Source: Candidatus Omnitrophota bacterium
GTDB taxonomy: Bacteria; Omnitrophota; Gorgyraeia; Zapsychrales; Fredricksoniimonadaceae
Assembly: GCA_030650275.1 (NCBI GenBank)
Contig: JAUSEK010000015.1
Location: 3,834 to 67,833 of the forward strand
DNA: 64,000 nt
Direction of reading: 5' to 3'
The notes under the pieces are model-generated. The model was given only the letters and a program-made list of their open reading frames with translations, did no database searches and was not told the origin of the DNA. The position numbers and the translations under genes were made by a program. This document shows positions 45,001 through 63,978 of this stretch, one piece after another. Every line of letters begins with the position of its first letter. Position 1 is the stretch's first letter.

Positions 45001-48000
45001 CTGTCGCCCGCGCCCACGTATCTACTTAAAAGGTCCACGTTCCTATTGCCCTGGTTTAAGTGCGCGGTCGGGCCTTGGGAAGGCGTCCATGCGTAAGCAA
45101 CGTTTATGCCATGGTCGTCATTGCCACGAACGCTGATGTTTGTCCCCTGGCGCTGATAATATCCGAGTTCATCCAGGCCCAGAGGGCTTCCGCCGGTCAA
45201 AAGGACATCGGGTCCGCTTGTTAGGACAATGCTCCTGCCCTCTTTGTCTGTCACACCGTTTAAAATTTGACTGGATTCCACATTATTAAATTGCCAGATT
45301 CCTTTATAACTTGGCACATCCATCATGAAGTCCAATGTCTTTAACCCTTCGGTATCCGCAATATCAATCTTGGTCAAAGAATCATTGTTTTCGCCCCTGC
45401 CGTTGAATTTGCCGATGCCCCTTCCGACATACTGACCATTCTCTAAAGATTTGGCATAAACCAATTTAGTGTCGTGGCCCAAACTATTCACAGAGTGCCG
45501 AATTGTCCTGTAGATAAATCTCAAATCCATAAACTTCTTGGCACCGGCGCTTCTTTCATCCAGTTTTGCCGACACCGGAATTTCTATTGCCAGCGCCTTA
45601 ATGTTATCAATGACCGGATTGCCCAGAGAACTGATGACATGTTCCGTGTTGATGAGCCCGGGCGTCAGCAAATGGTTCTGGATGAGGGCGTATTGATACT
45701 GAAGTTCGAGGTCTTTCGGGGCAAGAGGGCCGCCGCCCTGATCATAGGTGGGAACGATGAGTCCGCCGGCCACGCGCGTATACGCGTTGACGTCGCCACC
45801 GGAGGCATGGTCGGCTTTAATGCTGTCACGCAGTTTATCCATCGCCAGCGCGTTCTGGGTGGTAAAGCCGGTGGCACTGCCGATCGTATCGCTGTAAGAA
45901 ACAAAACTTTTGACCGACCCCCAACTGCCGGTGCCGATGAATTGCTCCAGATACGGCGTGCCATACAAAGCATCCGTCCCCGGCTTCATATAGGTAAGGC
46001 CGGCCAGCCCCGCGGTTTGCCAAGGGCCCATTTTGGCACCACCCTGCGGTAGCGGCCCCACATTGCCCTCCGCATACCATTTTTCCTGTGCCTCTTGACG
46101 TTTCGCTTTCTCGTCCTTTACCGATTGGGGCTCTCTGTCCAAAGCAGTCACCAGCCCGCCCGCGGCCAAAGCCGTGGTGAAAAATAAAAGCGTGCGGATC
46201 TCCGCCTTTTTCTGGCGGTATGCGTATGATTTGTCATCCTTGCCGATTATAATCTGTTCCAACTGGTCAAGCCCCATGTACATCCCTGTGCGAACGGCAC
46301 CCTCAAGGAGCGCTCCTTCCAAGGACATCCGCCTGTCTTTGGACATCGCCGATTGCATCTCCAAACTCATGACCTGACTTAAACTCCTGGAGGCCGTGCT
46401 ATCGACCTTAAGGCCGGCCTTCAGCGCGAGCAACCTCACGCCCATGCCCGAAAATTGCCCGACCATGCCGGGCAATTCATTCCTCAAACCCGCGCCCATG
46501 GCAGCGCTGAAACTGTGGGGCACCCACTCACGCGGCGTATTTTTCAACGCACTGTTGTATGCTTCATTCGCGCCCGCATTCCACTCTTGCCGCTGATTGT
46601 TATCAATGGCTGGTCCGGTATGGTCGGCCTCATACTTGGCTTTGGCGTCCGCGGCCGCTTTCTCATCTTTCCAATGCCCCAAATCCTCAAAATCTTTAGT
46701 GCCGTGCATCATTTTATCCGTGACCTCGGCAAACGCCGTCAACGCCATGCTGGAGGCCAACGAGGAAGCCACCTGCGTGACCGCTTCCTTGATGATCGCG
46801 CAGGCCCCGTTGGAATCCTTGCAATCCATGGCCTTGTCAATGGCCCTGACCACCAGATATTCCGCCGTGCCTTTGACCGTCCCATACATCATCCCCTTGG
46901 CAAAGCCCTTGGAAAATACAACAATGGCCTGCGACGTAGTCATTGACGGCACTACCGGCACCGGCGGGACCTGCGGCACGGAAACCGGCGCTGATCCGGG
47001 AACCGCCTTGGAACCAAAACCAAAAACACGTTTAATGCCGCTTGAAATTTTATTAAAAAAAGTATTGATCTTCTGGCCCAAACTGGCAATGAAGCCCAAA
47101 AATCCCGTAGGCGCCGGAGGCGGAGGCGGCGGGGTCACCCCGGTCGCCGGACCCGTGACGGCCCCCATCCCGTAAGTGATGCCTGCCGAAAGGGCCGTGC
47201 TTAAAATAAACGCCCCCACCCCGTTGCACACGCCCGCCTGCACACACATCGTCGCGATGGCTTGGGAGATCTGCGAAGCCGTCATGGAAATAGCAAAAGC
47301 CATGGCCACATCAGTGCCGGCTTTGGCGGCGGTGCCGATACCGGCGGTGACCAGGGCAAGCCCCACATTCATGCCGATCTGCCCAAGGGCCGCTTTCCAG
47401 GTCAGGCCCGGCAGATCTTTGGAATTGTCGCGCCACCTGTCCCCCCAGACAAACGCCCTCAACGGCTCCGGCACTTCTTCAAACGCGATGCCCGCGGCTT
47501 GCCCTGAGCCTGGTCGAAGGGCCTTCACATCCTTGATATAAACGAACCCGTCAAATTTTTGAATGAACTCCTGTGCCGGCAAAGAACCCGCGATGCCGAT
47601 ATCATTAAAATACACCGTATCGTTCTTGACCGCGGTCACGGTCACAAAATGCTCATCCTGTAAATGGGCCAGAAATGGCGTTGGCAATTTGACCACATCC
47701 GCGGGTGTTATCTTCACGCTCTGATAAGAAACGCCCAGCGCCTGCGCTACTTTATCCAGAGCATACAGCGAAGTTTTTAATTTCAGATCACCAACCTTGA
47801 TGACATCGCTGACCAAGTCCACCGAAACAGTCAGCACAGCCAATTCTTCCACCGAACGCACAACGCCTTCGTGGTCCAAAATATCTTTCAGGCCGTAAAC
47901 AGCGCAATTAAAAGGATGGATCCCGGGCTTGCCCAGCCATTCGGTAATGGCGCGGATGCGTTCGCGGGTGAACGTGCCATTGGCCTCCAAAAGCAGCGCT

Positions 48001-48368: not shown

Positions 48369-48612
48369 GTTGATTCTGTCGTTTTGGCTCATTAGTTTTT
48401 GCTATTTTTTGGATAAAGGATTGTCAATAACTGAAGTATAACACATTATATATAAGCGGCAAATTTTTGCAAAATTTTTTACGCATTTATTTGCTTATAT
48501 TGCAATAGGTTACGTCTTTTCTCCAAAATTTTTTAAATATATTCCAAAACTTTGTTCTTATAAGTAATAAAAATATTAAGAAAGCGTTTTCTTTGTGAGC
48601 ACATGACTTACG

Positions 48613-48684
48613 GGAATTATGGGGACACAATACTTAATTCAGCGATCAAAGCCTAGGAATTAAGCATTATGCCCCCATAATTCC
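48613..48684. promoter_or_regulatory. 12-bp perfect inverted repeat GGAATTATGGGG / CCCCATAATTCC (48613-48624 and 48673-48684, 48-nt spacer) in the divergent control region. It is a candidate operator, for example for AbiEi autoregulation.
   Basis: Seen directly in the sequence. AbiEi antitoxins are known to autorepress via inverted repeats in their promoter, which is established knowledge. Confidence 0.4.
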
Positions 48685-48770
48685 AGAATGGAAATTATCA
48701 GAATGGAAACTTATGTGTGGAATTCAGATTGGAAATTACAAGAATGGAAGAAATATTGCTTGAATGGGGC
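48684..48770. repeat. Iteron-like direct repeats of (C)AGAATGGAA(A) at 48684-48694, 48699-48709 and 48741-48750, with variants GATTGGAAATTA at 48727 and TGAATGGGG at 48761.
   Basis: Seen directly in the sequence, upstream of abiEi. Confidence 0.45.
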
Positions 48771-48816
48771 TGTTCTGAATGAAGTGGCTATCATCGGATC
48801 ATATCTTAAATTATTG

Positions 48817-48845
48817 TTGCAATAATTTAACATTTATGTTATTAT
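48817..48845 (+). promoter_or_regulatory. Candidate sigma70-type promoter for abiEi: TTGCAA (48817-48822), a 17-nt spacer, then TATTAT (48840-48845). This would give a near-leaderless transcript.
   Basis: Hexamer match by eye only; no other support. Confidence 0.3.
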
Positions 48846-48851
48846 TTTGAT

Positions 48852-49490
48852 ATGGAATTCAATGAGTTTCTCAAAAAATACCAAAACCTGCCGCTTTTAA
48901 ATACTGATCTCCTTTTGACCGGAGAAACGGATCCCCGCTTATTACGGGTCCAGCTGTCGCGTTGGGTCAAAGCAGGGCATCTCTTTCGATTGAAACGGGG
49001 AGTCTATGCTTTTGCGCCGCACTTTCAAAAAATTCTCCCTTCGCCCTATCTGATCGCTTCAGTCCTGACCCGGCCATCCTATGTGAGCCTGGAAAAAGCC
49101 CTAGAATTCCATGGGCTCATTCCGGAGGCGGTTTTTACGGTCACATGTGTGACCACCAAAAGGCCGGGCCGGTTTGAAACACCGCTGGGGAGGTTCAGCT
49201 ACAATCACGTCCGGCCGCAATTGTTCTGGGGGTATGCTTCAGTCCTGCTTGAGGACCAGTCCGGATCCATGGCCCATCCGGAAAAAGCGCTTCTGGACCT
49301 TATTTATTTAAAGGCGCCGCGACTGACCAAAAATTATCTGGAGGGGCTGCGGCTGCAAAATTTTGAAAAGATCAACGCCGGTAGGCTGCTGGAATACGGC
49401 CGCAGGTTCAAGAAACCGCGCATGCTTCACGCGGCCGGGATGATCATCGCATATATGAAAAAAACGGCATCCACGGAGAAAAAACTATGA
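48852..49490 (+). CDS. abiEi: AbiEi-family antitoxin/transcriptional regulator (type IV toxin-antitoxin), with an N-terminal AbiEi_4-type winged HTH.
   Basis: The 212-aa product MEFNEFLKKYQNLPLLNTDLLLTGETDPRLLRVQLSRWVKAGHLFRLKRGVYAF… matches the AbiEi N-terminal domain pattern. Its stop overlaps the next gene's start by 4 bp (ATGA at 49487-49490), as is usual for AbiE operons. Confidence 0.75.
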   Translation: MEFNEFLKKYQNLPLLNTDLLLTGETDPRLLRVQLSRWVKAGHLFRLKRGVYAFAPHFQKILPSPYLIASVLTRPSYVSLEKALEFHGLIPEAVFTVTCVTTKRPGRFETPLGRFSYNHVRPQLFWGYASVLLEDQSGSMAHPEKALLDLIYLKAPRLTKNYLEGLRLQNFEKINAGRLLEYGRRFKKPRMLHAAGMIIAYMKKTASTEKKL

Positions 49491-50290
49491 AAGACCATTG
49501 TCTGGAGCTCGCCCGGCAACAGTCCGGTCCTTCCGAAAAATATAATGTCCTGCGGGAATACACGCAGGCCTATGTTCTCAACATCATGCAGGAGGCGGGG
49601 GCGCTGCGGTCTTGCGTGTTCGTCGGCGGAACGGCACTGCGCTTTCTGTATGATCTTCCGCGCTTTTCAGAAGACCTGGACTTCTGTGCGGTCGGCCCAT
49701 ACGATCTTGTGTTCGCTGACCTCCTGGGCAAGATCAAACAGGAGCTGGTCCTGGCCGGCTATGAGGTCAGCGTCACCTACAGCGACGATAAAACCGTTCA
49801 TTCGGCGTTTATCAAATTTGAAGGGCTGTTGTTCGAGGCCGGGCTTTCACGCTTAAAGAGCGAAAAATTCTCCATCAAGATCGAGATCGATACCAGGCCG
49901 CCCGGCGGCGCGGTCGTTGTGACAAGGGTCATCAATAAATTCTTCCCCATGGCGTTTTTAACGTATGACCTGCCGTCGTTGTTCGCCGGAAAGATGCACG
50001 CCGTCCTGAGCCGCAAATACGTCAAAGGACGGGATTATTACGATATCGCGTGGTATCTGTCTAAGCGCAAAGACCTGCTACCCAATCTTGCCCTGCTTTC
50101 CGCCGCGCTGGAACAAACGGGCTGGAAAGGACCGGCCGTGACCGGGGAAAACTGGCGGTCCGTTCTTGCGGCGCGGGTTGAACAAACGGATTGGAAGATC
50201 GTGGACCAGGACGTCAACAATTTCCTCGAGCGGCCAGAAGACCTGAAGGTGTTGACGAAAGAGAATGTTCTTCGATTGCTCGCAGAATAG
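49487..50290 (+). CDS. abiEii: AbiEii/AbiGii-family nucleotidyltransferase toxin (DUF1814).
   Basis: The 267-aa product has the characteristic motif block …VFVGGTALRFLYDLPRFSEDLDFC… of AbiEii toxins. It is translationally coupled to the preceding antitoxin gene. Confidence 0.8.
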   Translation: MKDHCLELARQQSGPSEKYNVLREYTQAYVLNIMQEAGALRSCVFVGGTALRFLYDLPRFSEDLDFCAVGPYDLVFADLLGKIKQELVLAGYEVSVTYSDDKTVHSAFIKFEGLLFEAGLSRLKSEKFSIKIEIDTRPPGGAVVVTRVINKFFPMAFLTYDLPSLFAGKMHAVLSRKYVKGRDYYDIAWYLSKRKDLLPNLALLSAALEQTGWKGPAVTGENWRSVLAARVEQTDWKIVDQDVNNFLERPEDLKVLTKENVLRLLAE

Positions 50291-50307: not shown

Positions 50308-51228
50308 TTATTTCCCGGCGCCCAAGGCCTGCAGGGGGTTATTTTGGATGAAATCAAGGAAAATAGGGCCAGCCACTAAAATAGCCACCACCGGGAAGAT
50401 AAAGAACAGGAGGGGAATAAGCATTTTCAAAGGGGCTTTTAAGGCCACGGTCTCCCCGCGCCTGAAACGGGCCTCGCGCATATCTTCGGAAAGGATGTTG
50501 AGGGCCTCGCTCACCGAGGTCCCCATGCGGTCGGCCTGAATGAGGGTGCGGGAAAAGGTGGAGAGATCCGGCATCTCATATTTGCGGGCCATGTCGCGCA
50601 AGGCGTCGCGCCGCGGCTTGCCCACGTTGATCTCCTGCATCATGCTTTTCAATTCCTCAATGATCACCGAACCGTGGGACTTTTCCACCACGTATTTGAG
50701 CGCCATCATGAAATCCAGTCCCGCGTTGACGCAAAGCCCCAGCAAGTCCACCGTATCCGGCAATTCGCGCAAAATCGTGTCCCTGACTTTCTTGATGCGC
50801 GCCTTCAGCCACAACTCGGGAAGCATATATCCGGCCGCGATGCTCATCAGAACAGAAAACAGCAGGATCTCCTTGCCGACGTAGGACACGCTGGTCCACA
50901 AAAAAATGAGGACCAGGATCTCCTTGATCAAAAAGAATTCCTCGACGGAAATAGCGGTCCTGCTCATTCCTAAGTCCGTGGCCATGCGCCTGCCCAAAGG
51001 CAAAACAGCCAACGGCTTATTAAAAAAAGCCAATTTGCTGATCATGCTAAAAATGAGCTGCAGCGGCTTTTTTTTCTTCGGCTTGACCGTAACAGGCGGC
51101 TCCATGCCTTCAACGGTGAAACTGCCAACGGGGTTTAATTTCAATGTCGGGCGGCCCTTGACAGGCATCAAAGCCAGGGCCAGGGCAAAGACGGCAAAAA
51201 AGGCGAACATCAGTGACAAGACGAGCAT
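50308..51228 (-). CDS. tadC: Tad/Flp pilus assembly inner-membrane protein, TadC-like (T2SS F-domain family).
   Basis: The 306-aa product has an N-terminal TM helix, a cytoplasmic T2SSF-type domain (…ELPDTVDLLGLCVNAGLDFMMALKYV…) and C-terminal TM helices. Confidence 0.7.
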   Translation of the reverse strand: MLVLSLMFAFFAVFALALALMPVKGRPTLKLNPVGSFTVEGMEPPVTVKPKKKKPLQLIFSMISKLAFFNKPLAVLPLGRRMATDLGMSRTAISVEEFFLIKEILVLIFLWTSVSYVGKEILLFSVLMSIAAGYMLPELWLKARIKKVRDTILRELPDTVDLLGLCVNAGLDFMMALKYVVEKSHGSVIIEELKSMMQEINVGKPRRDALRDMARKYEMPDLSTFSRTLIQADRMGTSVSEALNILSEDMREARFRRGETVALKAPLKMLIPLLFFIFPVVAILVAGPIFLDFIQNNPLQALGAGK

Positions 51229-51331: not shown

Positions 51332-52186
51332 TTAAATGTCCTTGAACGTTGATATCTTCAAAATACTCAACGCCCCCACCACCCACAAAACCAGACAGAG
51401 GGCCACCAATTTCTGTCCGTCGGGGGTGTGGAGCATGGGGTCAAAAAATTTGGGATTGGTCGCCGAAACGCCGAAGACGAAAACCACCGGCAACCCGGTC
51501 ATGACCGCGGCCTGGATCTTGCCCTGCACGGTCAGGGTCTGGAGATTCTGCTCGATCTTCCTGCGTTCGCGTATGGTGGTGACGATGCGCGAAAAAATGA
51601 GCGGCAAATTTCCGCCGGTCTCGCGCGCTAATAAAATGGCGGTGATCATCTGCTGAAGGCCGGGGGAGGGCATGCGCTGGTAGAGCCGGTTGAGCGACTC
51701 GTCGAGCGCAACGCCCATTTTATTCTCGCCGAGCACGATGCCGAATTCCTGCCTGATGGGCTCCGGCATTTCCTCCGTGACCGCCTCAACCGCCTGGATC
51801 AAGCTCAAGCCCCCGCGAAAAGAACTGGACATGATCATCAGCGCGTCCATCAATTGATCGTTGAATTTCGCTTTGCGGTCCCTGATGATCTTCGCGACAT
51901 ACAGCCGCGGGATAATGGCCCCCAGCGCGATCCCGACAAAGATCCCGAATACCCGCGCGTCATGAAAAAAAACAAACCCCGCCAGACCAAGGGCGGCCGG
52001 CGCGATGATCTGCAGGCGGTAGGCCTTTTGAAAATCCCGGCCCTGCAAATGAACGTCAACCTTTAAAGCAAGGTCCTTGGCGTTCTTTTCATTCATTTCC
52101 CTGGTCTTGGCAATGACCACGGGAACAAGGGTATAAGACAGCACGCCGGCACAAATGAAAAACAAAAACAAGGTCATTTCAAACAT
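51332..52186 (-). CDS. tadB: Tad/Flp pilus assembly inner-membrane protein, TadB-like (T2SS F-domain family).
   Basis: The 284-aa product has an N-terminal TM helix, a T2SSF domain (…LIQAVEAVTEEMPEPIRQEFGIVLGENKMGVALDESLNRLYQRMPSPGLQQMI…) and C-terminal TM helices. Confidence 0.7.
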   Translation of the reverse strand: MFEMTLFLFFICAGVLSYTLVPVVIAKTREMNEKNAKDLALKVDVHLQGRDFQKAYRLQIIAPAALGLAGFVFFHDARVFGIFVGIALGAIIPRLYVAKIIRDRKAKFNDQLMDALMIMSSSFRGGLSLIQAVEAVTEEMPEPIRQEFGIVLGENKMGVALDESLNRLYQRMPSPGLQQMITAILLARETGGNLPLIFSRIVTTIRERRKIEQNLQTLTVQGKIQAAVMTGLPVVFVFGVSATNPKFFDPMLHTPDGQKLVALCLVLWVVGALSILKISTFKDI

Positions 52187-52215: not shown

Positions 52216-52569
52216 TCAGTAATACGGGTCGCTGTTGGGTTCGCGACAATTGCCGGAACATCCCTGGATAATGCCCGCTTCACACGCGGCAACATCAACA
52301 GCCGTGACGCAGGCGCGACGGCCGTTGTCGAAACAACGCTCATCATACCATGTCCTTGTGGCCGTATCGTGGGCGCACTCAACGGTGCGTTTGGGATCGT
52401 ATTGCCGGCCGAACGCAAAAGAATCGCCGGCGGTTTTCCATCGTCCGTAAAAGGCGCGCACAATAGGGCCTTTCATCCAAAACAGCGCCGCTAAAATGAT
52501 CGCGATCAAAAGCGCGTATTCAATGACGGCGCGACCGCGATTTCTAGCGACCCAGTGTGTTCTCATCAA
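52216..52569 (-). CDS. TadE-like pseudopilin with a class III (Tad-type) prepilin signal (…RGRAVIEYALLIAIILAALF…).
   Basis: 117 aa with an N-terminal G/xxxEY-type leader and a hydrophobic helix. Confidence 0.55.
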   Translation of the reverse strand: MMRTHWVARNRGRAVIEYALLIAIILAALFWMKGPIVRAFYGRWKTAGDSFAFGRQYDPKRTVECAHDTATRTWYDERCFDNGRRACVTAVDVAACEAGIIQGCSGNCREPNSDPYY

Positions 52570-55500
52570 AGGCTCCGGCAGGGCAGGGGACGAATTTGAC
52601 TTCCATGTGATTCGTCGACCGGTTGCCTGTATACACGGCGCATACCGTGGTCTTGGTCCCCTGGCTCAATAATGAATCCACCGTGGCCCAGCAACTCGCG
52701 GGGATCGTATTGAAGGGATCGCTGCCAACAGTATTGAGCATGAACGCCTGCCCGACCGATTGTTGGTCCGCCGCGGTCCCGCTGTTGATAACATAATTTC
52801 CCGCAATACCCAAACCCTGTCTCTGGCAGGCGGACAGCCCGGCGGCCGATCCCGGCACTGTGCCGGGTTTGCCAAAATGAAAATTCCACACCGGAACCGT
52901 ATTATTGAACGTCGTTGTCGCCGGGCGTTCTTCATCCCAGCGGGTGACGCGCGTCAGGACCCGGCCGTCGTAATCTTTTAACTCGGAGTGTTGTCTCGTC
53001 CACAAAAACCCGTCGGTGTCTACTTCAATATGCGGCAGATTGTCACGGTTGCCCGTGCCATACTCGCACATGCCCGCCACCGGGCATTTGCCAGGCCCCA
53101 TGCCTTCGGCCCGGACCATATGCCAATGCTGTGCCCTTGACGGATTTTTGGGATCAACGGGGCTTTGCCAGCCATACACAAGAAAATTAGGCATCTTGTC
53201 AAGATACAGCTGATAGTCCTGAAGGACAAGGAACAAAGACGGCACCGGCCGCTGGTCCGGATCGATCGTTCCGTCGGCAAGCATGGTCCCATACAGAAAA
53301 TTATCCAGCATCATCTTGCCGTGAGCGACCGTTCCCAGCGCCGCTTTGGTATTGCCCTTGATCGTTCTTAAATGTTCCTTCCTGGCCGTGAATTGCGCCG
53401 ACTGCGGCCCGGACAGATCATAGCTGTCATCCACCCATTTCTTATACAGCGATGGGGTCGCGCATGGGTCAAAGGCGGGCACGGGGCAATTTTGTGGCTG
53501 TTCAGGAGGAGCGGGTTCGCACACCAAAGACCGCGGCAATTCTTGGCAGACCGCCGGCAATGACGGGCACAGAACGCCCGACACGCTGCTTGCGCATGCC
53601 TGAAGATCGGCAAGACTATTCTGCTTGGCCGTTTCGCACGCAGAGATCTGTGCCTGGGTGCCGGTGCATATCTGGGCGGACACATCGGCAATTTGTTGTG
53701 CGATCCCGTTAAGTACCGCGGCCTTGGCGCTTGCGTCGCATGGATCAAACGAGGCGGCACAGCTGGGCGTCGCACAAGACAGGGCATCCAAAGCATCCTT
53801 GCATGTCTTGAAACGAACATCATTGGTTGAATTCCAGTCCAGGCATGCGATGACGCTGTTCAGCGATCCCCACGGGTTGCCTTTGAATTGGCCGGGGTTG
53901 GAATAGCAGCCGGGACAGGTGTCAAAGGTTTTGGTATAATCAATCTCATCGGGGGTCATTTGCGCATATTGAGGGTCGCTCTCACGCGGCATGCACCAGG
54001 CATTGAACTGCGGAAAAACATACGGTGTTATACCAAGGAACAGTCCCCTGTCGTGATAATCCTTCAAAAGATCATCCGTGGTCACGTCATCCTCGTCGCT
54101 GTTGAGCCAGGCCGTCAATGTCAGCCGCCAGGCCGTCAACCTGTTCTCAAATCGATACAAAACCCCGCCGCCCTCCTGGCAGATCAGGGCATTGCTGCCG
54201 TCGCATTCGGGGCCGATCCACACCGCGGCTTCCGGATACCATTCCTTCAAATTGGCCCTCAAAGTGTCATCATCCTGCGCTAAAAGCAGTTTGGCCCAGG
54301 CGTAGAACCCTTTCAGGGAATAAACGATGTCGTCCATCGGGTCTTCCGGCCAGTCCGCGGCTGTGGCCGGCGTGCACTTGGGGCAGGAAGTTCTGGTGCA
54401 GGCGTTTCTGGGACATTCATTATACGGCCATGTGGTGGAACAATACTGGTCTGCCCCTTCTCTCCACCAGAACCCGTTCGGGTCAAGACCGGGCTTATCC
54501 GCACAAAAGGGGGCCCGTGAGCAGAGCGGACTATCCGGGTTCACGCAATCTGGGTCATTTGGGTCCGGGCCCACCGCATGAAAAATTTGAGAGATCTTAA
54601 CCTTATCCGGCCTGCGATAGTCCCTGACACCGCCGGGGCCCGGGATCCTTAGGCCATCGCCGGTATTGCGCATGTCACCCATGTCCCAGAACAGGGAAAA
54701 TATGCCTTTGGCCTCAGCTTGGCGATCCTTGAACACTTTCTTTTCTACGTCAACCCCGAACGTGGCCAGAAAACTTGTGCCGCCGGAATATTTCGGATAG
54801 GTGGGGTCATAAATAAACGGAAAGGATGGGTCCGCTGCCGCGCATTGGGCCGGCACGGTAAGCAGACAACTGGCGGGCCGCAGGCGCTTGCCGTTGAAGG
54901 TCAGGGGCACACAGCACTTGTTGCAATGCGGATCACTGTTGGGCGTGCCATCCGGATTTTTCGGGCAGGCCTCTGTTATTTCTCCCAGCAAGGTGCCTAA
55001 CCCATCCAGGAAAACGGTAAGGTCCATGCCTGACATCGCTCTTTTAAGGGCTTTCAGGCGTTCGGTATAAAAAAATCCATACCGGCCGATCTTATCGTCG
55101 GAAGCGGGCCCGAATTTCCCGTTGGTATTGATGTCAAAATAATCAATGATCTTGCCCTGGTCCGAGACCAAACTTTGCGCGCCGGCGGACAAGCCCTGTT
55201 CCAAAAACCGGTCCTTGAGGGGCAATTTGGTATGCATTTGGTTGAAGGCCTTCACGGTCTTCACATCATTATAGACCGTGATCAGTGTGGCGGCCGCTCC
55301 CCCTATGGCTAAAGTGATCATGACGGCCGCAAGATGGGTGCCGGCCCCGGCTGTAAAATATATAATAAGGGCGGCGGCAATGAAGCTAAGAGCAACGACA
55401 ACCCAGCGCGCGAAACCGGACTTTTCAAAGCCCCCGCCCAGCGAGCTTTGGATCAGGGACTCGCCATAACTGGCAATGCCCGAAACAGTGTTGGCGGCCG

Positions 55501-55642
55501 CATTGGTGGCTGCCGTGGTCGTCATGTTCTTGATCTGCGACACGCGTCCCCAGTTGAGCGTGACGGCAAAAAAGATGAGCGCGATGGCGGCCAGTAAAAT
55601 AAGAACGAGGGCGGCTTGCCCTTTATAATTTTTCATAGTCAC
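52544..55642 (-). CDS. Large (about 1030 aa) Cys-rich TadE/TadG-like pilus-associated protein. The likely start is ATG at 55636 (MKNYKGQAALVLILLAAIALIFF…); the track start at 55642 is a GTG.
   Basis: The N-terminus has a Tad-type prepilin-like leader plus a hydrophobic helix. The remainder is an extracellular Cys/Pro/Asp/Trp-rich domain (…CNKCCVPLTF…, …CPRNACTRTSCPKCTP…). Confidence 0.6.
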   Translation of the reverse strand: MTMKNYKGQAALVLILLAAIALIFFAVTLNWGRVSQIKNMTTTAATNAAANTVSGIASYGESLIQSSLGGGFEKSGFARWVVVALSFIAAALIIYFTAGAGTHLAAVMITLAIGGAAATLITVYNDVKTVKAFNQMHTKLPLKDRFLEQGLSAGAQSLVSDQGKIIDYFDINTNGKFGPASDDKIGRYGFFYTERLKALKRAMSGMDLTVFLDGLGTLLGEITEACPKNPDGTPNSDPHCNKCCVPLTFNGKRLRPASCLLTVPAQCAAADPSFPFIYDPTYPKYSGGTSFLATFGVDVEKKVFKDRQAEAKGIFSLFWDMGDMRNTGDGLRIPGPGGVRDYRRPDKVKISQIFHAVGPDPNDPDCVNPDSPLCSRAPFCADKPGLDPNGFWWREGADQYCSTTWPYNECPRNACTRTSCPKCTPATAADWPEDPMDDIVYSLKGFYAWAKLLLAQDDDTLRANLKEWYPEAAVWIGPECDGSNALICQEGGGVLYRFENRLTAWRLTLTAWLNSDEDDVTTDDLLKDYHDRGLFLGITPYVFPQFNAWCMPRESDPQYAQMTPDEIDYTKTFDTCPGCYSNPGQFKGNPWGSLNSVIACLDWNSTNDVRFKTCKDALDALSCATPSCAASFDPCDASAKAAVLNGIAQQIADVSAQICTGTQAQISACETAKQNSLADLQACASSVSGVLCPSLPAVCQELPRSLVCEPAPPEQPQNCPVPAFDPCATPSLYKKWVDDSYDLSGPQSAQFTARKEHLRTIKGNTKAALGTVAHGKMMLDNFLYGTMLADGTIDPDQRPVPSLFLVLQDYQLYLDKMPNFLVYGWQSPVDPKNPSRAQHWHMVRAEGMGPGKCPVAGMCEYGTGNRDNLPHIEVDTDGFLWTRQHSELKDYDGRVLTRVTRWDEERPATTTFNNTVPVWNFHFGKPGTVPGSAAGLSACQRQGLGIAGNYVINSGTAADQQSVGQAFMLNTVGSDPFNTIPASCWATVDSLLSQGTKTTVCAVYTGNRSTNHMEVKFVPCPAGAFDENTLGR

Positions 55643-55890
55643 TGCCCCAGATCCACCCCGGGAGAAGCGTTGATCCTCGAGGGGTGATAAGCGTTCGATT
55701 GCAACCGTTCCAGGTTCCCCGTGGTGATCGCTGTGTTAAAAGAAGCATCGTATGCGTACTGACGCTTGGCCACGTCCATACCGACCCAGCGGAACACCTG
55801 GACCATGCCGTAAAGCAAAAACATGGCCGCGATCATGGCGAACACGAATTCAATAGTAGACTGCCCGTTGAATTTCCTCCCCCTTGTCAT
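55639..55890 (-). CDS. TadE-like pseudopilin, 83 aa if started at ATG 55890 (MTRGRKFNGQSTIEFVFAMIAAMFLLYG…). The longer track ORF to 56040 overlaps the upstream gene.
   Basis: It carries the GQSTIEF class III signal. It has ATGA-type overlaps with both neighbours at 55887-55890 and 55639-55642. Confidence 0.55.
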   Translation of the reverse strand: MTRGRKFNGQSTIEFVFAMIAAMFLLYGMVQVFRWVGMDVAKRQYAYDASFNTAITTGNLERLQSNAYHPSRINASPGVDLGQ

Positions 55891-57344
55891 GGCGCTCCCC
55901 CCAAACGCAATTGCCCCGACGCGTCCGTTTTCCAAAAATGCCCCTGCTGGTCCAGCATCCGCGAACGCACGTACAAAATCTTGCTGGCGCTGTCGAAACA
56001 GGTCCTGGCGATATTGTTGACGGAAAAACAGCCACCGCACACCTCGACAGCGGGCACTTCACTGGGCACGCCGATACCCCCACACATGCGCCCCGTGTCA
56101 TTGGACAATTGTATTTTCCGCTCGACTAAGTCCACCTGGTCCTTGCGGTTGACCGAGCGGATGAATTTTCCATCGAGATCATACGCCTTGCCCTGATTTA
56201 TCAAAAGATGATTGCCTTTGGCTGAACCAAAAGCCGGCTTGGTATAGATCGCCATATCATTCAAAAGCCCTACTTTGCCGACAGCGGCATCCGGACTGGT
56301 CATATCAAGGTCGCCTTCCTGGGAATCGAACACCACGGCCCCGGTGGCAATGCCATCGTCGTTATAATCCACCTGATAGATCGTTTCCTCCTGGCCGTCT
56401 CCGTCCACGTCAAAGGAAGGGTAGGAGCCATGGTCGGCATCAATGTGCAAGGGCTTACCGTCATCCTCATTATCGTCCATGGCCTGCACACCCCTCCACT
56501 GCCAGGTCATGTTCGCGTACAAAGACGAGGGGGGATCATTGGAAAGGTTGTCATCATGGTTGAGGTCAAAGCGTTCCGGCCCTGTCAAAAGCCCCGGACA
56601 CTGGCCGGAGGAAACACAAAACCTTTTTTCCAGGGCCTCCTGCCTGATCTCATCGCTGGCATCCTCACTGATCTCATTGCCGTCCTCCATGTTGACGACG
56701 GTTTGATAAAAGATCGGGCATCCGCGGCCACTTTTGCATGAAGAATCCCAACCGCCGCGCTGCGGCGGATCATGGACGATCGGCACAGGAGGGGCCGGGC
56801 CCTCGCAACCAGGGTCCTCCTCCGGACAGGAAAAGGAAACAGGGGCCACATAGGTTGTGGTCTCAACAAGTCCAGCTTTCGCGGAATGCACCGGACCGCC
56901 GCTGGAGCCCAAAAATCTTTTATACACAAGCCGCGCCATCGAGAAGGTGAAATGTTTACCGTTGATGAACATGTCCATAACGGGGACATGTCTGGGGTCC
57001 TGCAATTCCGACATGTCCATCGGATACATGAGCAGGTTGGTCATGCTGCCCGATCCCTGGGCCGTGAACGGCGCGCGCTCGGTGGATCCGTATTTGCCGA
57101 AATCCGGGCTCAACCGGTCTTCCAGATAAAGCATGGAAGGGCTGATGCGGCTGGTGTCGCCGGGAGTGCTTTTGGAGGACTGCACAAGGGCGTTGCGCAT
57201 GGCCTTTAAGGAGGCGTCCTGGCCCTGGCCCGAAGAAACCGCGGAACGGATGATGGCGCCCAGCACAAAAATGATGATGGCGCCGAAGATCGCCAGTTCT
57301 ATGACGGCCTGCCCTGAGCAATGTCGAAGGGCCTGTCCTTTCAA
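55887..57344 (-). CDS. 485-aa TadE-domain protein (TTG start; leader MKGQALRHCSGQAVIELAIFGAIIIFVLG) with a large Asp/Gly-rich C-terminal domain. Probably a minor pilin, adhesin or tip component.
   Basis: The N-terminus has the class III signal peptide motif GQAVIEL plus a TM helix. The C-terminal part is acidic, with DxDxDG-like stretches (…FDVDGDGQEETIYQVDYNDDGIATG…). Confidence 0.55.
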   Translation of the reverse strand: MKGQALRHCSGQAVIELAIFGAIIIFVLGAIIRSAVSSGQGQDASLKAMRNALVQSSKSTPGDTSRISPSMLYLEDRLSPDFGKYGSTERAPFTAQGSGSMTNLLMYPMDMSELQDPRHVPVMDMFINGKHFTFSMARLVYKRFLGSSGGPVHSAKAGLVETTTYVAPVSFSCPEEDPGCEGPAPPVPIVHDPPQRGGWDSSCKSGRGCPIFYQTVVNMEDGNEISEDASDEIRQEALEKRFCVSSGQCPGLLTGPERFDLNHDDNLSNDPPSSLYANMTWQWRGVQAMDDNEDDGKPLHIDADHGSYPSFDVDGDGQEETIYQVDYNDDGIATGAVVFDSQEGDLDMTSPDAAVGKVGLLNDMAIYTKPAFGSAKGNHLLINQGKAYDLDGKFIRSVNRKDQVDLVERKIQLSNDTGRMCGGIGVPSEVPAVEVCGGCFSVNNIARTCFDSASKILYVRSRMLDQQGHFWKTDASGQLRLGGAP

Positions 57345-57673
57345 AATGCACCGTCCTGACCGACTTGCATGTAACTGTTACGTTGTTCCGACGAGCGAGT
57401 GTTATCATTACGAAAGGTGGTATTGCTCAACGTCGTGATCGTTGTGTCGGATTCGGTGGCGGCTGTATATTGGGTGGTGGAATTGGTCTGCTGGGGATCA
57501 TACTGGTCGGCAAAATCGTCAACGGCGCTCTTCCATCTGCCTTGCATGCCGCGCTTGACATAACTGCTCATGCTCAAAAAGACCGCGATGATGATAATGG
57601 TCAGGACCGTGAACTCAAGTATGCTTTGCGCCCGGTGATCTCTGCGATGTCTTTGAAAATATTTGAACACCAT
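57341..57673 (-). CDS. TadE-like pseudopilin (…RAQSILEFTVLTIIIIAVFL…).
   Basis: 110 aa with a class III signal motif. It is stop-start coupled to the downstream gene. Confidence 0.5.
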   Translation of the reverse strand: MVFKYFQRHRRDHRAQSILEFTVLTIIIIAVFLSMSSYVKRGMQGRWKSAVDDFADQYDPQQTNSTTQYTAATESDTTITTLSNTTFRNDNTRSSEQRNSYMQVGQDGAF

Positions 57674-57711
57674 GCTTTCTCCGACTGTACGGGCGACCCG
57701 GCGGGTCGCCC

Positions 57712-58122
57712 CTACTGGTTCAATTTCCCGAGATTCGTCTGCGAATCGGACGTCGTATTCGTGGTCTCATTCACGGTAATATCGGCAACGCCGCCCCAGC
57801 CGGGCGTTACAACATTTTTGCTGACATGGCCCGTGACCTGTGTATTTGCCCCCACCAGATATCCCCCGGTCGCGCCCGGGTCATCGGCGTCCAGGAAATC
57901 CTGGTCGGCATTCTGTTGAGCGCCGATCTGGTCGGAGGTCACCTTCACCAAACTCTGCACGCCCCGCTTGAACAAAGGCCCCATATAAAAAAGCGCGACC
58001 GTGATGATCCCGATCAGAACAATATACTCAACGACGGTCTGGCCTTTATTTCCCATACCGGTCCCCGGCCGCGGCCCCGGGCGGAAGTTGTTCGCTATTG
58101 CTGGTCGTTTCAATGGTTTCAT
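57712..58122 (-). CDS. TadE-like pseudopilin. The probable start is ATG 58056 (MGNKGQTVVEYIVLIGIITVALF…).
   Basis: It has the GQTVVEY class III signal. The track ORF extends further 5' to 58122. Confidence 0.5.
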   Translation of the reverse strand: MKPLKRPAIANNFRPGPRPGTGMGNKGQTVVEYIVLIGIITVALFYMGPLFKRGVQSLVKVTSDQIGAQQNADQDFLDADDPGATGGYLVGANTQVTGHVSKNVVTPGWGGVADITVNETTNTTSDSQTNLGKLNQ

Positions 58123-58453
58123 TGGTTATTTTGCGAAATTGCCTGTCCGCGCCGCCGGCCAAGCCGGTCCTGACATCGCTGTTACGGCTGGTCCGGGAAT
58201 CGACTTTGCCGTAATACGGTTCATACTCGCGGGGAATGCCGCTTCCGCTGATCCCGGCCGCGGCCCTGCAATCAGGGCCGCATTCATTGGCGGCAACGTT
58301 GACCATATAATCTCTGCTGTCTTTGATCTTGGCCTGAATGGAGCGCTGGATATAGACCGTCATGGCCACGGCCGTGGCAACGACTAAAAAAAACGTCACC
58401 ACGTATTCGGGAAGGGAACTCTGGCCATTTTGGCCGTTTATGCCGCGCGCCAT
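58046..58453 (-). CDS. TadE-like pseudopilin (…GQSSLPEYVVTFFLVVATAVAMTV…).
   Basis: 135 aa with a class III signal-like N-terminus. Confidence 0.45.
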   Translation of the reverse strand: MARGINGQNGQSSLPEYVVTFFLVVATAVAMTVYIQRSIQAKIKDSRDYMVNVAANECGPDCRAAAGISGSGIPREYEPYYGKVDSRTSRNSDVRTGLAGGADRQFRKITNETIETTSNSEQLPPGAAAGDRYGK

Positions 58454-58466
58454 GAAGTTCTCCCAG

Positions 58467-58655
58467 CTATTGAGGGTTGGTCGCCCTCATCAGACGGTTG
58501 GCCATGTCCTCCATGCCATCGGTGGTTTTATTGATGGTATCGGAAAGTTTGTTCCGAAACGCCCCGCCGGGCCCGGTGAACAGGATGATCACCGCGATCA
58601 CCGCGGTGACCAACAAAATATACTCCACCGTGCTCTGGCCTTTTGTCTTCATCAT
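58467..58655 (-). CDS. flp: Flp-family type IVb pilin (MMKTKGQSTVEYILLVTAVIAVIILF…), 62 aa.
   Basis: A short product with the Flp motif G/QSTVEY and a hydrophobic helix. A GGGAG Shine-Dalgarno lies 8 nt upstream. Confidence 0.7.
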   Translation of the reverse strand: MMKTKGQSTVEYILLVTAVIAVIILFTGPGGAFRNKLSDTINKTTDGMEDMANRLMRATNPQ

Positions 58656-58702
58656 ACGCGCTCCCTACGATTTAGAAACCACTAAGGGACCCCCACCGGG
58701 GG

Positions 58703-59035
58703 TCATCTGCCCATATATTCCTGCTCGGTGTTGACGATCACCGATCTTTCCGACGTATTGGTGGTTTCGGGACCGATCAATCCGGTCGCGGAAACGCCCT
58801 GTCCGTCCACACCGAACGTCTCACGGCTCGTGCTGGACGTGTTGGTGGTCTTGATGACGTTGGTATTGCCCACCGAATACTGGTCGCCGATATCGTCGGC
58901 AGCGCTCTTTAAACGGCCCTGCACGCCGCGCTTGATGTAAAACTGGATGGACAACAGCGCGCCGATGATGATGACGGTCAGCACCGCGTATTCAAGGGTG
59001 CTTTGCCCTCTTTTTTGGCTAAAATAAGTCAACAT
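58703..59035 (-). CDS. TadE-like pseudopilin (…KRGQSTLEYAVLTVIIIGALL…).
   Basis: 110 aa with a class III signal motif. Confidence 0.5.
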   Translation of the reverse strand: MLTYFSQKRGQSTLEYAVLTVIIIGALLSIQFYIKRGVQGRLKSAADDIGDQYSVGNTNVIKTTNTSSTSRETFGVDGQGVSATGLIGPETTNTSERSVIVNTEQEYMGR

Positions 59036-59065
59036 AGAACATCCTCCTTAAGATACGATTTTATT

Positions 59066-59452
59066 TTAGTCGCCGCCGCCTGTCCCGTCGGTGCTGTACG
59101 TTGACTGCTGGGTACCGGTCCTGCTGCGGTTGGTCGTTGAGTCCGCGGCGACCAGACCCACGCCCTGACGCTTGTTCTCTTGGGCGTTACGGGTGCTGGT
59201 ATAATCGCTTTCCAGGTAATACGGTTCATACTGCGTTTGGTTGCCGATGGCGTTGGTCTGGCTGGCCAGATACTGGCTGGCATCGTGCATCCTTGCCTGC
59301 AAAGAACGCTGGGCATAGGTCTGCATCGCGATGACGCCCGCGACGACCAGGGCGATCAACAGCGCGTATTCCGCGGTGTTCTGCCCCGAGCGAAGTCGAG
59401 GGGTTTGTCCTCTGGTATTTTTAAATAAATTTCTAAACATATGTTCCTCCAT
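59066..59452 (-). CDS. TadE-like pseudopilin (…RSGQNTAEYALLIALVVAGVIAM…). An alternative start is ATG 59440.
   Basis: 128 aa with a class III signal motif. Confidence 0.5.
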   Translation of the reverse strand: MEEHMFRNLFKNTRGQTPRLRSGQNTAEYALLIALVVAGVIAMQTYAQRSLQARMHDASQYLASQTNAIGNQTQYEPYYLESDYTSTRNAQENKRQGVGLVAADSTTNRSRTGTQQSTYSTDGTGGGD

Positions 59453-59469
59453 TTATGGATGTTGTTTCT

Positions 59470-59724
59470 TTAAAATCCGGCCGTCGGGTCCACCGTGACG
59501 CCCGGCGCGGGAGTTACTCCGTTAGCGGTTGCCCCCTGGCTGTTCACCAAACGGTTGCTTATGCTCCCGATGCTGTCGGCGGTTGAGTTAAGGGTATTGC
59601 CCAAACGGCCCGTCAGTGCCGAATTCGGGCCGGTGGTAAAAAAGATCATCGCGCCGATGACCGCGGTCGCAAGCAAGATATACTCCACCGTGCTCTGACC
59701 TTTTGTCTTCATTTTCCTGAACAT
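59470..59724 (-). CDS. flp: Flp-family pilin (MFRKMKTKGQSTVEYILLATAVIGAMIFF…), 84 aa.
   Basis: It has the Flp motif and a perfect AGGAGG 7 nt upstream of the ATG at 59724. Its 5' end is near-identical to the flp gene at 58467-58655. Confidence 0.7.
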   Translation of the reverse strand: MFRKMKTKGQSTVEYILLATAVIGAMIFFTTGPNSALTGRLGNTLNSTADSIGSISNRLVNSQGATANGVTPAPGVTVDPTAGF

Positions 59725-59757
59725 ATAAATGCCTCCTGATGTATTTAAGATGCTTTG

Positions 59758-60015
59758 TTATTCGTTGGCGATCTCCTGCGTCACCGCCTTCTGGGTGGCC
59801 TGCACGGAACGGAACACGTAGGTGCTCATGGCCGCCATAGCAGCGGACACCAAGGCCACGACGATCGCGTATTCGATGAGATTTTGTCCTTTGATGTTCC
59901 TAAGGATCATCGCGGCTGCTCCTACATGAAAGATAAAGGAAGTATGCCATATAAAATAAGGGATGTCAACCCTTCGACCTAAAAATTCGCGTTGTTTTCC
60001 GACGCTATCTGACAC
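59758..60015 (-). CDS. flp: Flp-family pilin. The likely start is ATG 59910 (MILRNIKGQNLIEYAIVVALVSAAMAAM…).
   Basis: It has the GQNLIEY class III signal. The track ORF extends to 60015 and overlaps the upstream gene. Confidence 0.55.
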   Translation of the reverse strand: MSDSVGKQREFLGRRVDIPYFIWHTSFIFHVGAAAMILRNIKGQNLIEYAIVVALVSAAMAAMSTYVFRSVQATQKAVTQEIANE

Positions 60016-61483: not shown

Positions 61484-61825
61484 TCAACCGATTTGAATAT
61501 TATCGCCCATGTGTGTTTGGGAGGCGGCAATGGTGCCGGCAGAGGTCTCAATGGCGCTGTGGGCTTGCAGGAAGAATGGAGAAAATTGAAAAGGCCGGAT
61601 GTCGGGGCACAGGCCCACCGCCGTGTTCGCGCGGTCAATAAAAATGACGTCCAGCGGGAATTTCATGAACAGCATGTGGATGCTGCGGCAGGGGGTGATG
61701 ACCAGCGCTTCGCCGGAATTGAGCGCCCCGCGGCCCAGCAGTCCGGTCATGCGTTTGAGGGGAGTTTTCGCCAGCGAACCGGTCTCGGCGATCAGCGTGC
61801 CGCGGGTCAAATTACGGATGGTCAT
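61484..61825 (-). CDS. DUF192 (COG1430) family protein.
   Basis: The 113-aa product has the pattern …GLLGRGALNSGEALVITPCRSIHMLFMKFPLDVIFIDRANTAV…, which matches the DUF192 signature. It has an ATGA overlap with the upstream ATPase gene. Confidence 0.45.
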   Translation of the reverse strand: MTIRNLTRGTLIAETGSLAKTPLKRMTGLLGRGALNSGEALVITPCRSIHMLFMKFPLDVIFIDRANTAVGLCPDIRPFQFSPFFLQAHSAIETSAGTIAASQTHMGDNIQIG

Positions 61826-63978
61826 ACGTTAAAGACGGCCTTGGACAGCGGAATGCCTCTGGTCTGGAAGTCCTCGAAACATTTGGGCACAAAGCCGGTG
61901 GCGCTGTATTCGCCCAGCACCACGCCGTCGGCATTGATGCCTTTTTGTTTAAAAATGAATACGTCCTTGAGCTCCGGAAGGCCCTCGACTATTTTTCCGG
62001 TCAGCTCGGAGATCGCCGTGATCTTGCGCGACCCGTCGGAAAAACGGGAAATTTGGATAATGATGTTGATGGCGGAGGCCGCCATTTCATAAATGGCGCG
62101 GATGGGCAGTTCAATGCCGGAAAGAAGCACCATGGAGCTCATGCGCGAGAGCACATCGCGCGGGGAATTGGCGTGCAGGGTCGTCAAAGACCCGTCGTGG
62201 CCGGTGTTCATGGCCTGGAGCATGTCCAGGACTTCCGGGCCGCGGCATTCGCCGATGATGATGCGGTCGGGCCGCATGCGCAAGGTGTTGATGAACAGGT
62301 CCCGGATGGTCACGCGTCCGCGGCCTTCAATGTTGGGCGGCTTGGACTCCAGGCGCGCCCAATGACTTTTCACCAAACGCAGTTCCGCCGCGTCTTCAAT
62401 GGTGATGATGCGCTCATTGTCCGGAATGAATTGCGAAACGATATTGAGCAGTGTTGTCTTGCCCGCGCCGGTGCCGCCGGAAACGATCACGTTCTTGCGG
62501 CCGATGACGCAGGCGTTCAGAAAATCCACCATGGGCTGGGACAGGGAATGGAATTTATTTAAAAGGTCGTCAACGGTGTAGCGCTCCTGGGCAAACTTGC
62601 GGATGGTGATCATGGGCCCGCCCAGCGACAGCGGGGGGATGATGGCGTTGATGCGCGAGCCGTCGGGCAATCGGGCGTCCACCATCGGGGCGCTCTCGTC
62701 CACGCGCCGGCCCAGGGGAGCGATGATGCGGTCAATGGTGGCGCGCACCTGGTCGTTGGAAATGAAGCGCTTGTTGGTCAAAATGATCTTGCCGCGTTTC
62801 TCGACGAAGATCTCATCCTTGTTGTTGACCATGATGTCGTTGATCTCCGGGTCGGCCAGAAAATCCTCCAGCGGCCCCAGGCCGAGGGCTTCATTGACGA
62901 TCTCACGCACCAAACGCGAGCGCTCCTCATGCGAAGCGATGAAAGCGCCGGCGGCCTCGGCCAGCAATTCGGAAACGATCTTGGCCGCGGCCTTGCGGAT
63001 ATTGGCGGCCTGTGCCGGGTCGGAAAGCGCCTCGGGCGAGATCTTCTGCACGTTCATGCGCTCAACCAGACGCTGATGGATGGCTTTTTTAAGTTTGATG
63101 ACCTCGTCCTCTTCCTGCCTATAGATCGTGACGGGCGATGAGGATCCGGGGGCAATGCCGAATTTTTCCCAGAACTCATTGCCCTTCTGGGCCTGCGTGT
63201 CCGCCGCGCGCACCTTGATGACGTCCGAGGCCTGCACATACATGTCTTCAACTTCGAGTTTGCCGGCAATCTCAAAAAATGACTCGGACACGCGGGCTTT
63301 GGGGCTGTCCATGACGCAGGGGACCCCGCGGTTGAGCGCCAGGCCGACGGTCTTCCCGTCGGAGGGAACGAGGGCGAAAATGTCGCAGGCCAGCGCCGAC
63401 TTGACCTCCTGCCAGGCCACCCCGCCGCGGCTTTCAGCGCGGTTGAGAATGAGTTTGACCATCTTTAAAGGATAGTGCAGGCTCTGAAGGATGTCGAGCG
63501 TCGCCTTGACCTGATAAACAGCCAAAATGTCCGGCGTCGCGACGAGAAGAATTAAATTGGAAGAATCCAGAACGCTGATGAGCATTTCGCTGAAGGCGCT
63601 GCCGGCATCCACGACAATGTAATCATAGATCAACGCCGCCTTCTTTAAAAAAGGACGGATATTGTCGGCCGTGATGTGTCCGGTCTGGCGGATATGCGTG
63701 ACGCCGGGCAGGAACTCCAGGCCGCTGGCATGGCGCAGGACATAACCGCGGATGATGTCGGGTTTCTCGTCCTTTTCAACGGCCGCCAGAAGATCAACGA
63801 GGGATTGCGTGGGGACAAGATTGAGCATGCGGGCCATGTCCTGACCGGCCTGCACGTCCAGGTCCACGATCAGGGTTTTCTTGGCCTTAAGGGCCAGGGC
63901 GGTCGCGATGTTGACGCCGACAAAGGTCTTGCCGACGCCGCCTTTATTGCTGAAAACCGTTATGACTCTGCAGGACAT
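61822..63978 (-). CDS. tadZA: Fusion of a TadZ/CpaE-like ParA/MinD-type ATPase domain (N-terminal) and a TadA/CpaF secretion ATPase (C-terminal).
   Basis: A deviant Walker A motif ([13 protein letters not shown]) lies at residues 8-20. CpaF-type Walker A ([16 protein letters not shown]) and the helical/His-box region (…[32 protein letters not shown]…) are in the C-terminal half. An in-frame stop upstream at 63988-63990 fixes the ATG at 63978 as the first start. Confidence 0.8.

Follow-up and report, generated by a model that had tools for sequence, protein, structure and literature searches.

A conserved C39-family domain heads a giant protein encoded next to a Tad-like operon in an Omnitrophota bacterium

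Giant proteins of the Omnitrophota, which range from 10,000 to over 100,000 residues, raise the question of whether each works as one chain or is cleaved into parts, and an N-terminal domain of the C39 peptidase family is the main candidate for the cutting. The question arose here for a stretch of 64,000 nucleotides (the window) from contig JAUSEK010000015.1 of a Candidatus Omnitrophota bacterium (assembly GCA_030650275.1). A six-frame stop scan found a minus-strand frame open from position 48401 to position 3, with its first ATG at 48392. This giant open reading frame (ORF) leaves the window at the window's start edge, and its translated product is at least 16,130 residues long. The C39 module forms the extreme N-terminus of the product, where the translation reads MSQNDRINMNEY...SRFHSWIRTVAIVVLAIFIPDQVSWAF...FNCAVYGLKDIL...EHFVTVTAVKNDTVYFND, with GIHPFNCAVYGLKDIL...LQDEHFVTVTAVKNDTVYFNDIG as further stretches after MSQNDRINMNEY...SRFHSWIRTVAIVVLAIFIPDQVSWAF. 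The conserved head of the protein consists of three parts: a signal/anchor helix, a peptidase domain of ~210 residues with the C39 papain fold (Cys163-His248-Asp264), and a short hydrophobic region with a C-x5-C pair.

The domain almost certainly belongs to the C39 family. A pair of Cys and His motifs, claimed for this N-terminus in an earlier sequence-only reading, was present in the minus-strand translation, with Cys163 in FNCAVYG (codon at 47904-47906, gca, reverse complement tgc) and His248 in EHFVTV (47649-47651, atg, cat), together with Asp264 (47601-47603, atc, gat). The gap between Cys and His is 85 residues, not the ~75 given in that reading, and Asp264 follows His248 by 16 residues, which is the canonical C39 spacing. 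The C39-like assignment made at the same time was borne out by a Pfam scan, in which Peptidase_C39 (PF03412) matched at E = 3.2e-8 with 33.9 bits against a gathering cut-off of 22 (33.9-35.1 bits and E = 1.4e-8 to 3.2e-8 over scans) and was the sole Pfam family reported for the N-terminal region even at E <= 10. The alignment covered the His half only, pairing residues 208-285 with profile positions 45-125 of 133, and all 57 of the homologues scanned matched the same family. Searched against the PDB with phmmer, the single sequence gave a marginal match (6mpz, E = 0.4), while a profile built from 57 homologues matched 6mpz, the double-glycine protease LahT150, at E = 4.7e-5. The motifs "nCG" and "eHFV" of the family profile aligned onto the matching motifs of LahT150; the Cys-side alignment was weak when taken alone.

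Structure prediction gave the same answer. The AlphaFold2 (AF2) model of residues 61-310, based on the alignment of 57 homologues, had a mean predicted local distance difference test score (pLDDT) of 88.6 and a predicted template modelling score (pTM) of 0.84, with pLDDT > 90 across most of model residues 28-240, and superseded a model from a 4-sequence alignment (pLDDT 47.9). Cys163 begins a predicted helix (model residues 103-114). In a Foldseek search of the PDB with this model, ranks 1-22 were all C39 peptidase or C39-like domains (LahT150 6mpz, PCAT1, ComA, 3b79, and HlyB 3zua/7sgr), with E down to 1.5e-6, probability 1.00 and a TM-score of ~0.72 normalised to targets of ~140 residues. 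The root mean square deviation was 2.3-4.6 Å for most of these top matches, reaching 7.0 Å for some full-length PCAT1 chains. Papain-like folds outside C39 appeared only at E >= 0.01, namely the CHAP lysin 5d74 (E = 0.03) and 3erv (E = 0.07). The predicted papain-like fold, with C39 domains as its best PDB matches, agrees with what the sequence-only reading had supposed.

An exhaustive profile search covering 1.84 billion representative proteins recovered 589 relatives, of which 161 reached E <= 1e-30, compared with only 3 from a word-indexed homologue search. In most relatives the module sits right at the N-terminus, and the proteins concerned are long or cut off by a contig end, the largest having 7,820 residues. 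Some large relatives (P0058, P0077, P0087, P0118 and P0145) have two to three internal C39 modules (~600, ~1500-1900) instead of a single N-terminal one; the source of P0058 is "Candidatus Gorgyraea atricola".

Conservation was counted over 143 modules aligned to the family profile. Position 163 is Cys in 139 modules and Ser in the other 4, position 248 is His in 140, and position 264 is acidic in 133 (Asp in 115, Glu in 18). Around the Cys, Gly is found at position 164 in 119 modules, Trp at position 152 in 141 and Leu at position 153 in 136. The Cys and His singled out from the sequence are, in short, kept in the related giants. Three of the 4 modules with the Cys-to-Ser change have also lost the His, a joint loss that is expected if the two residues work together. 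Retention of the Cys is all the more telling because the long homologues are poor in this residue (0.12%); the giant protein itself has 10 Cys in 16,130 residues (0.06%). Judged by these counts, strong purifying selection acts on the putative catalytic triad, in a protein that has hardly any Cys.

Ahead of the domain, the N-terminal tail is acidic and variable among homologues, and closes with the basic SRFHSWIR, which flanks the hydrophobic segment; the length preceding this segment ranges from 12 to 210 residues among homologues. A transmembrane helix had been placed at residues ~35-50 by the sequence-only reading, and a hydrophobic segment does exist, but at residues ~43-62 (48201-48266; Kyte-Doolittle peak 1.79 at residues 46-64), outside the interval 47600-48100 to which that reading had assigned it. 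It is followed, up to residue 72, by the conserved motif P(D/E)Q-SWA-F-(N/S)Y-NP-VLW. In the 15 residues on either side of the segment, Lys and Arg together averaged 2.77 before and 0.52 after across 103 homologues, being more numerous on the N-side in 96 of them and less numerous in none. By the positive-inside rule this excess predicts an N-in/C-out orientation, so that the C39 domain should lie outside the cytoplasmic membrane. At ~11-13 residues the h-region is short, with a Pro at its end and then the conserved S-W-A, so that a signal anchor and a cleavable signal peptide (with a long n-region) are equally plausible. Either would put the C39 domain outside.

The head stands apart from the rest of the protein. 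In an alignment of 22 orthologous giant ORFs over their first ~3,600 residues, identity to the giant protein was 38-40% over the first 400 residues and 7-15% after them. Likewise, the depth of BLASTP high-scoring segment pairs was 125-135 in the first 400 residues and 0-7 beyond, where small conserved islands occurred near residues 600-930, 3000-3600 and 5000-5650. Matches to the family profile reached about position 430, past a post-domain motif with the consensus AFVWGD(K/R)W...LPGL among orthologues and the Gly/Ala-rich region that ends the head. This last region probably forms two to three membrane helices and contains a conserved C-x5-C pair (C383 and C389; consensus CVMKGAC), two of the protein's ten Cys. 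As far as these alignments indicate, conservation in these giant proteins is highest in the head, and the remainder is hypervariable. Even in the head, the nearest genome relatives of the giant protein share only ~40-46% identity. Module loci were found in species genomes of GTDB in 34 cases, all of them Omnitrophota metagenome-assembled genomes (MAGs), some labelled "uncultured Planctomycetales". The module ORF reached the end of the fetched stretch (up to ~3,600 residues) in 32 of the 34, and was ended by an in-frame stop after 527 residues in L002 and 2,194 residues in L025.

Taken together, the domain assignment, the kept triad and the predicted topology make it fairly probable that the head is a membrane-tethered or exported thiol protease of C39 fold, with a functional Cys-His-Asp triad, that acts on an exported polypeptide, most simply the giant protein itself. 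The helix would insert N-in/C-out, or be cleaved as a signal peptide, leaving the peptidase on the outer face of the cytoplasmic membrane, where it would cut an exported polypeptide. The likeliest substrate would be the giant protein, cleaved in cis or between neighbouring copies, and thereby cut to pieces or freed from its anchor; co-exported partners would be the alternative. Autoprocessing or partner processing is a reasonable suggestion and matches that in the literature on this class of giant proteins: in the relevant passages, West-Roberts et al. (2023; 10.1101/2023.11.21.568195) propose that C39 domains may cleave giants into smaller polypeptides, or may cleave other substrates.

Several features of the module depart from canonical C39 domains. 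The inserted helix of the AF2 model (residues 143-153, bearing W152-L153) separates the first core strand from the catalytic helix, taking the place of the short Gln-bearing loop of those domains, and is preceded by ~55 well-ordered residues (88-142) that form a long helix and two beta strands. This insertion and the N-terminal extension explain why the Pfam model aligns only with the C-terminal half. An oxyanion-hole Gln six residues before the Cys is a feature of PCAT1, ComA and papain. The following points weigh against the protease reading. The Gln at -6 is absent, the position being Gly157 here and W, E, D, G or S across the 143 modules, and the loop before the Cys, which comes in two length classes (WLxxPxIHPLNCG and NWLKGRPCG), has no family-wide conserved polar residue (neither Gln nor Asn) in these modules; catalysis may for want of the Gln be weak or different in nature. 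The alignable part of the 22 orthologous N-termini yielded no conserved G-[GAS] dipeptide, and no double-glycine leader was visible in translations of the neighbouring genes. The topology, too, is drawn from charge statistics alone. The missing Gln, the missing G-[GAS] site and the lack of a nearby double-glycine leader gene together argue against the canonical double-glycine mechanism. With the Gln loop replaced by the inserted helix, the specificity of the putative protease need not be Gly-Gly.

The head opens the giant ORF directly after a Tad-like pilus/secretion operon on the same strand (Table 1). Two T2SSF genes lie immediately upstream of the giant gene, and such genes are upstream of the module in all 27 related loci with enough flank, as well as in L035, a contig from ENA. 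The same-strand order before the giant ORF, in all 27 and again in L035, is pilin-like genes, 485-aa gene, 1032-aa gene and the two T2SSF genes, the 1032-aa and 485-aa genes keeping their order wherever they were found in related loci. At its N-terminus the 485-aa protein carries a hydrophobic segment like that of pilins. The small pilin-like genes encode K/R-G-Q-x-x-x-E-Y (K/R-G-Q-S/N-T-V/L-E-Y) and then a hydrophobic helix, in keeping with the Flp-type class III signal pattern; their matches to Class_IIIsignal (PF04021) were weak and below the cut-off. At the head of the visible operon, the fusion ATPase combines a MinD/ParA/CpaE-like part (residues 4-250) with a TadA/VirB11-family part (residues 326-660), and matched the TadA family TIGR03819 at 1.2e-93. 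West-Roberts et al. (2023; 10.1101/2023.11.21.568195) describe, ahead of the giant genes, a conserved locus that resembles type II/IV secretion systems and contains genes for class III signal peptides.

Table 1. Features of the giant ORF, its head and the upstream operon (positions in the window; residues of the giant protein)
Feature	Position	Strand	Basis
Giant ORF, at least 16,130 aa	3..48392	-	six-frame stop scan and translation
N-terminal tail, residues 1-42	48267..48392	-	translation
Hydrophobic signal/anchor segment and conserved motif to residue 72	48177..48266	-	hydropathy, charge counts
N-terminal extension of the folded domain, residues 88-153	47934..48131	-	AF2 secondary structure
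C39 papain-like core, residues 154-290	47523..47933	-	PF03412, Foldseek, family profile, conservation
Post-domain motif AFVWGDRW...DLPGL, residues 313-330	47403..47456	-	near-invariant in 22 orthologous N-termini
Gly/Ala-rich hydrophobic region, residues 335-415, end of the head	47148..47390	-	orthologue alignment, identity drop
Two T2SSF (TadB/TadC-like) platform genes	50308-51228, 51332-52186	-	PF00482, E ~2e-17 each
1032-aa gene	52544-55642	-	without Pfam/NCBIfam match; tblastn in 24/34 related loci
485-aa gene	55887-57344	-	without Pfam/NCBIfam match; tblastn in 18/34 related loci
At least 8 small paralogous pilin-like genes	57341..60015	-	translations; several conserved in related loci
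MinD/CpaE-like and TadA-family ATPase fusion, head of the visible operon	61822..63978	-	PF00437 E = 8.6e-59, ParA/AAA_31

This linkage bears on the first of three other explanations, namely that the head is an active protease working on separate proteins, either products of the Tad-like operon (the pilin-like, 485-aa and 1032-aa proteins) or surface proteins of prey. Head and operon are the conserved elements while the giant body varies, which suggests that the head works with the machine and not with the body, and other protein substrates are also allowed for in the passages of West-Roberts et al. (2023; 10.1101/2023.11.21.568195). No gene for an A24 prepilin peptidase was visible in the 15.6 kb upstream within the window or in the 10 kb upstream in L035, which would favour this reading; these flanks are short, however, and the gene may be encoded elsewhere. 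Instead of Gly-Gly, the leaders of the pilin-like proteins have K/R/N-G at their end, ahead of Q. Prepilin leaders, moreover, are cut at the cytoplasmic face, whereas the C39 domain is predicted to lie outside. With both leader and predicted topology wrong, the pilin-like proteins were set aside as preferred substrates, and separate substrates in general are an unlikely alternative to a head that acts on the giant protein.

A second possibility is that the domain no longer works as a protease and serves in binding or tethering, in the manner of the C39-like domain of HlyB, by holding unfolded polypeptide or docking to the secretion machinery. The fold matches would allow this, as they include the C39-like domain of HlyB (3zua, 7sgr) and 3b79; the oxyanion Gln is missing, a few homologues lack both Cys and His, and C39-like domains elsewhere serve the secretion of giant adhesins (SiiF). 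Against it, 93-98% of the 143 diverged modules retain Cys, His and Asp, and the proteins have hardly any other Cys. Known non-catalytic C39-like domains are without the catalytic Cys. The lack of this Cys is also part of their description in the passages of West-Roberts et al. (2023; 10.1101/2023.11.21.568195). A tether of this kind is accordingly rated as very unlikely.

Least probable of all is other thiol chemistry outside the cell membrane by the triad, such as transpeptidation, transglutaminase-like cross-linking, acyl transfer (as for BtrH_N, a C39 relative) or a cell-wall amidase with own or prey peptidoglycan or pseudomurein as possible targets: the domain is predicted to be extracytoplasmic, the CHAP lysin 5d74 is a weak, lower-ranked Foldseek match (E = 0.03), the loss of the oxyanion element is tied to transferase, deamidase and transglutaminase families in passages of a survey of the papain-like superfamily (PMC10318531), and an archaeal C39-like protein with non-peptidase activity is reported in part of another source (PMC13642728), but all significant sequence and fold matches are C39 or C39-like, other papain-like families being 10^4-fold worse or absent, and nothing specific favours any particular alternative substrate.

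Within the reading of the head as an exported protease, a more specific and unlikely proposal is that it represents a distinct exported C39 subfamily, set apart by the missing Gln, the inserted helix, the tether and the C-x5-C pair, and working on the outer face with the invariably adjacent Tad-like machine. If so, it might release the nascent giant or divide it into functional pieces during export, or mature pilus-like parts, with a specificity different from Gly-Gly, and this would explain why head and operon are conserved and the 16,000-residue body is not. For the question of single chains or pieces, the window adds constraints: a conserved triad, no canonical Gln, a probably extracytoplasmic position, a head that is the most conserved part, and strict linkage to Tad-like genes. 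It leaves the published picture unchanged, and its value lies in whether and where the giants are cut.

Beyond the head, the giant protein has 19 strongly hydrophobic segments on the Kyte-Doolittle scale, clustered mainly at residues 8,000-8,300 and 12,400-13,800. Self-BLASTP found neither internal repeats nor extra C39 copies, the module being present as a single copy, and no ABC (ATP-binding cassette) transporter domains were found in the 16,130 residues. The body has a clear Pfam match to Glucan_synthase (PF02364, 1,3-beta-glucan synthase component; E = 2.7e-44) at residues ~13008-13494 (window ~7911-9371, minus strand), inside the cluster of hydrophobic segments at residues ~12,432-13,820. 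PF02364, which we take to be the GT48/FKS family, is mainly eukaryotic and hence unexpected in a bacterial giant protein. A match to a DEAD helicase at residues 4898-4952 was below threshold (E = 0.005) and adjoins an island at residues ~5007-5646 with 23-29% identity to segments of other giants (P0040, P0089 and P0095). Residues ~4898-5646 (window ~31455-33701, minus strand) may be the divergent SecA-DEAD-like region described for the giant-protein class. Long antisense ORFs within the giant gene, such as 31374-33092 on the plus strand, had no Pfam match and were treated as shadow ORFs; the example given sits opposite the DEAD-like and island region and is probably spurious.

Upstream of the giant gene lies a 460-bp AT-rich intergenic region (48393-48851). 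It contains a near-consensus sigma-70-like site (TTTGCA-17-TATAAT, 48473-48445, minus strand) ~50 nt before the giant ATG, which is a pattern match only, and a Shine-Dalgarno sequence was not obvious upstream of the ATG. Between the tadC-like and giant genes, an AbiEi-like/AbiEii toxin-antitoxin pair occupies 48852-50290 on the plus strand and is absent from all 34 related loci; since other loci have unrelated ORFs in the same gap, the site looks like an insertion hot spot. Inside the operon, a 438-aa ORF (59979-61295, minus strand), probably left over from a mobile element, has weak HTH_32 and IS481-transposase-like N-terminal matches; none of the 34 related loci has an equivalent of it. The fusion ATPase gene is followed by a DUF192 gene (61484-61825).

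Among known systems, the C39 domains of PCAT/AMS proteins (LahT150 6mpz, PCAT1 6v9z/8vp5, ComA 3k8u/5xe8) are the best structural matches to the module. They share with it the papain-like fold, a Cys in C-G at the start of a helix, a His in an HFV strand, an Asp 16 residues later, and membership in PF03412. Unlike them, the module is not fused to an ABC transporter and comes after a signal/anchor helix, predicted to be extracytoplasmic rather than cytoplasmic; it lacks the Gln at -6, carries an inserted helix and ~70 additional residues at the N-terminus, had no double-glycine leader substrate found for it, and is only ~20% identical. The C39-like domains of HlyB type (3zua, 7sgr) have the same fold and are likewise tied to the export of very large proteins, but they are cytoplasmic substrate tethers without the catalytic Cys, whereas the module here keeps the triad. 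Peptidase_C39_2 domains (PF13529, e.g., 3erv) resemble the module in not being fused to a transporter and in carrying extra structural decorations; in contrast to these, the module did not match PF13529 in sequence even at E <= 10, and the fold match to 3erv was weak (E = 0.07).

The closest likeness is to the giants already described from Omnitrophota. N-terminal C39 domains beside signal peptides in Omnitrophota giant proteins are reported in passages of West-Roberts et al. (2023; 10.1101/2023.11.21.568195), an architecture cluster with PF03412 among Omnitrophota long proteins appears in part of a 2026 preprint (10.64898/2026.06.07.730766), and homologues are annotated at NCBI as "cysteine peptidase family C39 domain-containing protein", so that both the kind of feature and the functional suggestion are already on record. 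The passages concerned of West-Roberts et al. do not state the triad counts, the loss of the Gln, the inserted helix and extension, the charge bias, or the conservation of head over body. The window gives a further member of a described giant-protein feature, and the identification is correct but largely known. In the description given in those passages, the Archaeovorin-type giants of Omnitrophota and the giant protein are both longer than 10,000 residues, with multiple transmembrane segments and an N-terminal C39 domain beside a predicted signal, and both are preceded by a type II/IV-secretion-like operon that includes genes for class III signal peptides. Among the described giants, the peptidase domain near the N-terminus may also be of the S8 family. 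Of the glycosyltransferase domains that are a trait of the Archaeovorin type, the giant protein has one clear example (Glucan_synthase) in the part within the window, which does not include its C-terminus. With relatives that are all Omnitrophota MAGs, it differs from the Archaeovorin-type giants in nothing essential.

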